Source of the DNA: a virus
Taxonomy: Duplodnaviria > Heunggongvirae > Uroviricota > Caudoviricetes
IMG/VR virus record: IMGVR_UViG_2703718782_000019
Strand: one strand, 5' to 3'
DNA: 4,019 nt
Position 1 is the stretch's first letter. Each line of letters starts with the position of its first letter. Below, in pieces: positions 1 through 3,966 of the stretch. Position numbers and translations under genes: made by a program. The notes under the pieces were generated by a model. The model did not search any database. It worked only from the letters and a program-made list of their open reading frames with translations, and was not told where the DNA came from.

Positions 1-2943
<2,943 letters not shown>

Positions 2944-3046
2944 ACAGCCTTCCCCTGAATAAATTAACCGCCACTTGCCATTCCGTACAGAAGTCGGATA
3001 TCCTTCGCCCGAAAAGCATGAAACACATTTCTGCCATGCTAAAGAG

Positions 3047-3082
3047 AAACCCCGGTATCAGCAGATACCGGGGTTTTCTTTC
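3047..3082. terminator. Bidirectional Rho-independent terminator hairpin
   Basis: Perfect 13-bp inverted repeat AAACCCCGGTATC (3047-3059) / GATACCGGGGTTT (3064-3076) around a 4-nt loop AGCA. The GC-rich core CCCCGGTATC/GATACCGGGG is followed by TTTTCTTTC on the plus strand and by TTTCTCTTT on the minus strand. Confidence 0.55.
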
Positions 3083-3148
3083 ATGCCCACCGATAATCCT
3101 GTTGGTTAAAACCGGTAATGGCATAAAAATTCTGAATATCTTCACATT

Positions 3149-3176
3149 TTCACACACTGACTGTGGCGCTTATAAT
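3149..3176 (+). promoter_or_regulatory. Sigma70-type promoter, -35 TTCACA (3149-3154), 16-bp spacer, -10 TATAAT (3171-3176)
   Basis: Perfect -10 hexamer and a 5/6 match to the -35 consensus at 16-bp spacing. An AT-rich tract lies upstream (GCATAAAAATTCTGAATATC), and a second TTCACA copy sits at 3141-3146. Predicted transcription start is about 3183-3185. It points away from J and towards the 3' end of I. Confidence 0.5.
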
Positions 3177-3182
3177 TTCGCT

Positions 3183-3280
3183 GCGTTAGTGTTTTTTTGC
3201 CCGAGTAACAAAAACAACTCCTTAACATTGATCTTCATTTGTCTGTCCCCGCAGCTCCGCGATCACTGCGGGATTTTTTT
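3183..3280 (+). ncRNA. Candidate small RNA of about 98 nt (promoter to intrinsic terminator), convergent with I
   Basis: Bounded by the TTCACA-16-TATAAT promoter and the terminator at 3247-3280. There is no ATG in the transcript and no plausible ORF. The layout is a 5' region with a CA-rich single-stranded stretch (UAACAAAAACAACUCCUUAACA), an AU-rich stretch (CAUUUGUCUGU), then a GC hairpin and U7 tail, which is typical of Hfq-dependent sRNAs. Confidence 0.35.
3247..3280 (+). terminator. Rho-independent terminator: GC-rich stem plus T7 tract
   Basis: Stem CCCGCAG (3248-3254) / CTGCGGG (3266-3272), loop CTCCGCGATCA, followed by A then TTTTTTT (3274-3280). On the minus strand the hairpin is preceded by an A-run rather than followed by U's, so it is plus-strand specific. 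It ends 6 nt from the I stop codon. Confidence 0.6.
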
Positions 3281-3285
3281 ATGTT

Positions 3286-3966
3286 TTATCCCTGTCGCCC
3301 GACAACCACGACCGTTCCGCCCCCGCCTTCATCACGGGTGCTGATGTCCTGGGATATACGGCGGGAGCCAACCAGCATTTCCCCGTAAGGCACCGGCATC
3401 GGGTTCCCCTGGGCAATCATGTTATCCAGCGAGGAAAAGTACGTGTTCTGTCTGCCGTTATCCGTTGCGCGGTAATCCGGTGTTTTTGCCTTCGGGGCCA
3501 GCATCTGGGCCACACCGCCCAGAATCATGCTGGCTCCAAGTGAAAACAGCATTGTGGTGGCAGAAAAACCACCGGCTGCCAGGGCTGAACCCCATAACGC
3601 CATTGATGCCCCGGCAGTGAAGAAAGAGCCCACGATGGCTGCCGCCCCCAGCACAATCTGCAGTCCACCCTTTCCGGCCCCGGCCAGTCGCGGCACAATA
3701 TGGATGACCGTTCCCTCACCCAGCTGTTCGTGAAGACGGGCGTACACCGCCTCCGGTGCCGTGTCATAACCGGCAATACGTATCTGGTACCAGCCTTCGT
3801 TCATCTGACGGCGAAAGCCCGGCACCTGTAACGACAGCGCCCGGATGGCTTCCGCTGCCGTGTTCACATACAGGCTGAGGCGGCGGCCAAATCGTTGTAA
3901 ATCCCCGTGAAGGCAGATGCGTGCCAGTGGCGGTGACGCCAGACAGAATGCGTTCGTCGTTGCCAT
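3286..3966 (-). CDS. I: Tail assembly protein I
   Basis: 226-aa ORF MATTNAFCLASPPLARICLHGDLQRFGRRLSLYVNTAAEAIRAL...GASMILGGVAQMLAPKAKTPDYRATDNGRQNTYFSSLDNMIAQGN...YGEMLVGSRRISQDISTRDEGGGG, collinear with and highly similar to lambda gpI, which I recall as about 223 aa. ATG at 3966-3964 with GGGAGAGG upstream; stop TAA at 3288-3286. Confidence 0.9.
   Translation of the reverse strand: MATTNAFCLASPPLARICLHGDLQRFGRRLSLYVNTAAEAIRALSLQVPGFRRQMNEGWYQIRIAGYDTAPEAVYARLHEQLGEGTVIHIVPRLAGAGKGGLQIVLGAAAIVGSFFTAGASMALWGSALAAGGFSATTMLFSLGASMILGGVAQMLAPKAKTPDYRATDNGRQNTYFSSLDNMIAQGNPMPVPYGEMLVGSRRISQDISTRDEGGGGTVVVVGRQG

Follow-up and report, generated by a model that had tools for sequence, protein, structure and literature searches.

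The I–J tail-gene junction of a lambdoid prophage carries a pasB small-RNA gene beside a separate hairpin segment

PasB (E2348CN_0006) is a small RNA of enteropathogenic Escherichia coli (EPEC) O127:H6 E2348/69 that was described by Pearl Mizrahi et al. in 2021 (PMC8550237). It was listed as an 83-nt transcript of prophage PP6, encoded between E2348C_1436 and E2348C_1437 (NC_011601 1466343..1466261, minus strand), with its directionality given as '(> <) >' (Table S6, PMC8550237). PasB was detected on Northern blots at the size predicted by RNA-seq, was more abundant in non-activating (non-virulence-inducing) growth, and showed log2 fold changes of -6.8 and -2.4 by RNA-seq in an hfq mutant (PMC8550237). 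RIL-seq assigned it 37 interactions, placing it 15th among the sRNAs, and its partners under activating conditions included bfpB, bfpI, ftsZ, galE, ler, perB and rplX among others (PMC8550237). A preprint survey subsequently reported 1,158 PasB hits, often representing the only Pas gene of a genome, and described PasB as embedded in a phage structural-gene operon, with a 3′ stem-loop followed by poly-U and with pasB copies lying at least 28 kb apart; the seed is proposed there to immediately precede the terminator (bioRxiv 10.64898/2026.05.13.724894). In O157:H7 Sakai, Hfq-CRAC identified the orphan Hfq-bound RNAs EcOnc22, EcOnc23 and EcOnc24 (Tree et al. 2014, PMC4104026, Table S2), which gave a Northern band of ~85 nt and were destabilised in the absence of Hfq (PMC4104026).

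The window, by which we mean the whole 4,019-nt stretch of viral DNA analysed, contains family-supported long ORFs on the minus strand only, among them the lambda-type tail genes I and J (Table 1). The assignment of gene I is also supported by how RefSeq annotates the identical locus of strain E2865, and its start in RefSeq relatives is the equivalent of 3867, versus 3966 for the longest ORF. The N-terminal 602 residues of J comprise FNIII-A_GpJ and Phage-tail_3 domains, with the GpJ domains detected by Pfam over 1138-2943. A first-pass annotation, made from the sequence alone, had taken the gap between the two genes for an insertion longer than the roughly 60-bp spacer of lambda and AT-richer than its neighbours. 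Its coordinates for the 342-bp gap are exact and the 60 bp of lambda (15445-15504) are confirmed; furthermore, the GC content is 0.415-0.425 across 3001-3300, compared to 0.55-0.65 in the flanking genes.

Two observations concern J itself. Judged against the intact J of E2865 and PPompW, the J ORF ends at 1135 following a replacement of 127 bp by 'AA' at 1137-1138, a net 125-bp deletion relative to the near-identical J of O26:H11 strains; since this deletion shifts the reading frame, the prophage is probably unable to produce a working tail tip. A contiguous match to the deletion junction was found in none of 5,426 complete E. coli genomes. In addition, a promoter-like sequence, TTCACA-16-AATAAT, was scored at 691-718 on the plus strand (10/12), antisense inside J, and is probably a chance match.

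Table 1. Coordinates of the features at the I–J junction (positions in the window).
Feature	Position	Strand	Basis or remark
Gene J (tail tip / host specificity), 5′ part, 602 codons	1135..2943	-	ORF list; Pfam PF24801 and PF13550
I–J intergenic region, 342 bp, two modules	2944..3285		ORF coordinates, GC, gap alignment
J-proximal module, 176 bp	2944..3119		Lineage-specific, near-invariant; holds J ribosome-binding site GGGGAAGG
Weak promoter-like sequence TTGCCA-18-TATCCT	2975..3004	+	Scan, 9/12
Palindromic GC hairpin; core 3047-3059 / 3064-3076, loop AGCA, A tract and T tract on either side	3041..3082		Folding
Conserved 20-mer TTCTGAATATCTTCACATTT	3130..3149	+	Upstream of and overlapping -35; common to all PasB-like cassettes
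PasB promoter: -35 TTCACA 3149-3154, 16-nt spacer, -10 TATAAT 3171-3176	3149..3176	+	Scan, 11/12
PasB small RNA (most likely PasB-2 variant), 83 nt as published	3198..3280	+	82/83 identity, exact probe
Unpaired conserved PasB core: AACUCCUU 3216-3223 and UUGAUCUUC 3228-3236	3216..3236	+	38-allele motif counts, alignment, predicted fold
PasB intrinsic terminator: CCCGCAG 3248-3254 / CUGCGGG 3266-3272, then A and U7 (3274-3280)	3248..3280	+	Scan and fold
Tail assembly gene I	3286..3966	-	Longest ORF; Pfam PF06805 Lambda_tail_I, E=2e-16, over 3289-3966

By sequence identity, the I–J gap carries a pasB gene. The plus strand at 3198-3280 differs from PasB of the E2348/69 prophage PP6 (NC_011601 1466343..1466261, minus strand) at a single base, and the complement of the published Northern probe, AATCCCGCAGTGATCGCGGAGCT, maps exactly to 3253-3275. 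Moreover, the PP6 interval that holds PasB is itself an I–J gap, with the RNA encoded on the strand opposite to the tail genes. The sole mismatch lies at position 27 of the RNA, where C in E2348/69 is replaced by A here (3224). Because position 27 also distinguishes PasB-2 from PasB in the preprint survey (Zhu, Shabalina and Storz, bioRxiv 10.64898/2026.05.13.724894), the variant is most likely PasB-2. The expression, the Hfq stabilisation and the RIL-seq chimeras described above were recorded for the E2348/69 copy, which is one base different from this allele.

The BLAST and Rfam searches that the first-pass annotation had proposed gave plentiful matches and no match, respectively. The whole 342 bases were recovered at 100% identity in 'PPompW' prophages, and the 342-base query matched 1,612 of the 5,426 complete E. 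coli genomes, with nothing annotated there; numerous further lambdoid and Stx phages, VT1-Sakai among them, contain only the I-proximal half (query 177-342), which is ~74-99% identical there. Searching all 4,227 Rfam families against both strands of the window at E-values up to 1 yielded no match, PasB having no family in Rfam, and AgvB, AsxR, IsrG and STnc100 were discarded as identities, as their covariance models matched nowhere in the stretch; AgvB and AsxR are, in addition, located at the PR′ site, outside the tail operon. The first-pass prediction of a moron-like, autonomously transcribed element with an RNA cargo was right, in that the I-proximal half is the PasB gene with its own promoter and terminator. 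PasB itself is not new: the RNA was described in 2021 and surveyed in 2026, and relatives of it were seen in 2014.

The anatomy of the gene was then read against its family, for which 38 of ~50 distinct PasB-like alleles, collected from viral contigs through the conserved 20-mer, were compared. The near-consensus promoter that had been proposed on the strand opposite to the tail genes was recovered by the scan, and the same site was found in E2348/69; three promoter-like matches lie in 2900-3330, compared to 0.4 +/- 0.6 in shuffles. The 20-mer that overlaps its -35 element is present in all eight PasB-bearing gaps aligned, except for two variable positions, and has no counterpart in lambda. 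An exact search with these two positions left free located it in at least 120 viral contigs, in which the sequence just downstream is variable. It is possible that the 20-mer is a regulator-binding or UP-type site, which could explain the condition-dependent expression of PasB. The predicted start of transcription at ~3183 lies 15 nt upstream of the published 5′ end at 3198, which falls inside a U7 run; given this offset, the 83-nt form probably reflects processing, or incomplete coverage, of a primary transcript of ~98 nt.

At the other end of the gene, the scan called a terminator at 3256-3272 followed by T7, one of two hairpin/T-tract terminators anticipated by the first-pass annotation; the other, with its core at 3047-3076, was recovered by folding. 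The number of terminator-like matches over the whole window equals the shuffle expectation. A hairpin followed by a U tract is the usual Hfq-binding 3′ module, and this arrangement is retained in every one of the 38 alleles, each folded separately, including the allele L133 (CCCACAG / CUGUGGG) and the paralogous cassettes, where the stem is altered on both arms and still folds. The elements conserved across alleles are the 20-mer in the form TTCTGAANNTCTTCACATTT, the -10 element (TATAAT, AATAAT, GATAAT or TATCAT), GCGTTA at the predicted start, the U run, AACUCCUU or close variants of it, UUAAUCUUC and the terminator; promoter, core and terminator are conserved even across alleles that are ~74% identical. 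RNAalifold returned no consensus structure from a MAFFT alignment of the 38 alleles, in which the 5′ arm of the terminator was probably misaligned. In the predicted fold, the middle of PasB is unpaired, and the stability of the RNA as a whole is unremarkable (z about -0.8). The CUCCUU part of AACUCCUU is complementary to a Shine-Dalgarno sequence, and position 27 is immediately 3′ of this motif; from its conservation and its predicted single-strandedness, we infer that the core at 3216-3236 is a candidate seed.

The same architecture appears in O157:H7 Sakai. We converted the published EcOnc coordinates to NC_002695.2 with AsxR and AgvB1 as reference points, at which the shift is +136 to +143, and this placed EcOnc22, EcOnc23 and EcOnc24 in the I–J gaps of Sp15, Sp14 and Sp11, respectively, on the strand opposite to the tail genes. 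The shift-corrected peaks coincide with PasB-like RNAs (L205:1137-1227, equivalent to NC_002695.2 2902836-2902926, and likewise L206 and L207), and EcOnc22-24 consequently appear to be relatives of PasB, a link that is absent from both PMC8550237 and bioRxiv 10.64898/2026.05.13.724894. EcOnc42 and EcOnc54, also considered as tail-junction RNAs, are located elsewhere.

Other prophages place further cargo at this junction. In Sakai Sp10, it is occupied by sodC, encoding Cu,Zn superoxide dismutase, antisense to the tail genes (L210:17485-18335), followed by a PasB-like body and terminator lacking the PasB promoter; this PasB-like RNA may be a read-through product of sodC or a remnant. In addition, tandem PasB-like cassettes occur within one gap of some viral contigs, two in L128, L165 and L178 (179 bp apart) and three in L154, each cassette with the 20-mer, a core motif and its own terminator; in the three contigs with two cassettes, the one nearer to J showed no -10 element recognisable by eye. 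Given the minimum spacing of 28 kb reported for pasB copies, these tandem paralogues seem to be undescribed. Collectively, EcOnc22-24, the Sp10 sodC gene and the tandem cassettes show that insertions of antisense cargo recur at the I–J junction.

The first-pass annotation had treated the gap as one insertion bearing both terminators. The DNA is indeed extra and the terminator at 3248-3280 is that of PasB, but the gap is composite: the PasB cassette accounts for only ~165 bp, and the remaining 176 bp form a separate segment to which the second hairpin belongs. This became evident from the junction comparison that the annotation had suggested, in which nine aligned I–J gaps resolved into the PasB cassette and an exchangeable J-proximal segment. 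Lambda has a short spacer with a hairpin only, whereas E2348/69, VT1-Sakai and five other prophage gaps carry a J-proximal segment of ~75 bp followed by the PasB cassette, for a total of 240-254 bp. In the window, the PasB cassette (~3120-3285) is kept, and the J-proximal module is unrelated to the ~75-bp hairpin segment whose place it takes. The module is linked to several PasB alleles, with a recombination boundary inside the PasB promoter region.

The J-proximal module is both common and nearly invariant. It is present in 1,446 of the 5,426 complete E. coli genomes, about a quarter, and of the 1,451 records that match it, 1,442 do so with an identity of 99% or more; among phage records, it occurs in 13 only, all 100% identical, and no diverged relatives were found in the phage records or in the 5,426 genomes. 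It was absent from the stretches examined of Sakai Sp6, Sp10, Sp11, Sp14 and Sp15. Species representatives with the module are limited to Escherichia albertii and a probable contaminant, a 3.4-kb contig labelled 'Streptomyces flavalbus' (L126, NZ_JBHTEB010000006.1) that holds both the module and a PasB cassette and is almost certainly contamination. Two viral contigs have the module abutting unrelated DNA, with the break near 3107 (L018) or inside the PasB promoter (L073); these junctions resemble the product of an insertion sequence or of a rearrangement. An apparent second place for the module in the phage, returned by BLAST, was discarded as the palindrome matching its own opposite strand.

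Folding of the module yielded a hairpin at 3041-3082 with a stability of -27 to -32 kcal/mol and z values of -6.6 on the plus strand and -8.4 on the minus strand, and none of 200 shuffles was as stable. The terminator scan did not flag this second hairpin because the flanking A and T tracts pair with each other and extend the stem; judged by the predicted fold, its architecture is that of a bidirectional terminator. On the plus strand, the fold of 3005-3082 places a stem-loop (3015-3020 / 3035-3040) ahead of it. The scan calls the hairpin in the ~75-bp segment of E2348/69 as a terminator of tail sense, and in lambda, too, a hairpin stands at this position before J. Consistent with this positional likeness, our best guess, held with low confidence, is that the J-proximal module is a functional analogue of the pre-J hairpin of other phages, and as a separate, interchangeable segment, it would most likely serve as a terminator or insulator together with the 5′ leader of J. 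No published function or transcript was found for the module in the literature.

A different reading of the same 176 bp would make it a second plus-strand small-RNA gene, running for ~70 nt from the promoter at 2975-3004 to the end of the hairpin at 3082. The promoter-like site scores 9/12 and has the same orientation as PasB, and the RNA would fold into a 5′ stem-loop, an A-rich linker and the strong hairpin ending in UUUUCUUUC (z -6.6). Moreover, the gap of other prophages accommodates RNA cassettes in pairs or triplets, and the module hardly varies among the 1,446 genomes that carry it. Nevertheless, the TATCCT -10 element is poor, the module has no sequence similarity to the PasB cassette, there are no diverged copies in which conservation or covariation could be read, and no transcript has been found in print. 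Furthermore, T tracts on both strands, together with a position at which other phages have a tail-sense hairpin, make a terminator role sufficient. We accordingly regard a second RNA gene as a possible but doubtful interpretation. A similarly tentative standing is given to a broader proposal that the I–J junction is a dedicated small-RNA slot, holding one to three PasB-like genes with a shared 20-mer and an anti-Shine-Dalgarno core, in which the J-proximal module is a further RNA gene or a bidirectional terminator and PasB also acts in cis. If this were true, the bidirectional terminator at 3041-3082 would set J expression and insulate PasB.

For PasB, we favour a role in trans. The I-proximal 165 bp would be transcribed from its own sigma-70 promoter into an RNA of ~83-98 nt, antisense to the tail genes and ending at the intrinsic terminator just before the stop codon of gene I. 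PasB would then act by Hfq-dependent base pairing with target mRNAs, with the unpaired core, AACUCCUU ... UUGAUCUUC, contacting the targets and its CUCCUU suited to masking ribosome-binding sites. Given that CUCCUU is complementary to the Shine-Dalgarno sequence, Hfq-assisted pairing with translation-initiation regions or with other mRNA sites would be the most economical mechanism.

An alternative is that PasB acts mainly in cis, as an antisense control of the tail operon in which RNase III cleavage or transcriptional interference affects J of its own prophage or of a related superinfecting phage, the RIL-seq partners being incidental. PasB is fully complementary to the I–J spacer of the late tail mRNA, the whole gene is enclosed by the tail operon and converges on I, this position is kept in all alleles and in the cassette arrays, and a tail-sense hairpin before J is kept in all I–J gaps. 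However, Hfq dependence and chimeras with unlinked mRNAs are typical of trans-acting RNAs, PasB is made in lysogens, in which the late operon is not transcribed, and perfect pairing in cis would not require the unpaired core that is conserved even in divergent paralogues. We consider it unlikely that cis control is the principal role. Roles in cis and in trans are not mutually exclusive, and it is possible that both exist, with a cis role being unnecessary to explain the data.

That the gap encodes a small protein, namely a 141-aa ORF at 2919-3344 (+), a 77-aa ORF at 2924-3157 (-) or a shorter one, is very improbable. The first-pass annotation had seen no protein-sized ORF; mechanically, the 141-aa and 77-aa ORFs do cross the gap, and a hypothetical protein is annotated beneath the match in one phage record, but none is supported as coding. 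The 141-aa, 77-aa and 44-aa ORFs have no Pfam or PHROG match, and the two longest run through both strong hairpins. The 141-aa ORF is shortened to 93 and 95 aa in other alleles, so that a conserved coding ORF, the case that the annotation had held against its own reading, was not borne out. Furthermore, the region is unannotated in RefSeq, and no good ribosome-binding site was visible by eye. Least credible of all is an inert or ancestral spacer with chance promoter and hairpins: consensus scans alone are weak and the terminator-like matches are at shuffle expectation, yet an RNA was shown experimentally by Northern blotting and RIL-seq from a locus one base different, promoter, core and terminator are conserved at ~74% identity, and the segment is absent from lambda.

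As a whole, the gap is highly probably explained as an 'RNA moron' slot that carries PasB-2 together with a separate J-proximal hairpin segment, situated within the tail genes' operon of a PPompW / O26:H11-type lambdoid prophage. The RNA encoded here is a documented Hfq-dependent small RNA that contacts the mRNAs of virulence regulators (ler, perB, bfp) in EPEC. The sequence-only reading had rightly predicted an RNA-cargo moron; to this, our analysis adds the link to EcOnc22-24, the recurrent use of the I–J slot, the 15-nt discrepancy at the 5′ end and the common, near-invariant hairpin module next to J.

Compared to known systems, the element works like a moron but lies outside the classical, protein-coding definition. 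It is extra DNA between neighbouring genes, with 342 bp versus 60 bp in lambda and 240-254 bp in other prophages, and its GC content is distinct. Its own promoter and terminator, predicted from the sequence, are conserved across alleles. The cargo is an RNA, as no ORF in the gap is supported, in place of the protein of the classical definition. The classical lambdoid morons (Juhala et al. 2000) share with it the insertion of extra DNA where lambda has two neighbouring genes, an own promoter and terminator, a lower GC content and the opposite orientation. The sodC moron of Sakai Sp10 occupies the identical junction and differs in carrying a protein rather than a small RNA. The EHEC anti-sRNAs AgvB and AsxR (RF02702, RF02703) are likewise prophage-encoded, Hfq-binding, short and convergent on phage genes; they differ in occupying the PR′ moron site, beside Q and stx and outside the tail operon, in having no sequence similarity to PasB and in being known as sponges for core sRNAs. 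EcOnc22-24 share the cassette architecture and the conserved motifs of PasB, and differ in being ~74% identical over the cassette, with a AACUCCAU core and an AATAAT -10 element. The closest counterpart is PasB of PP6, which has the same I–J slot, the same antisense orientation converging on I, and an identical promoter and terminator, and which differs in being preceded on the J side by a ~75-bp segment, where the window carries the unrelated segment of 176 bp.
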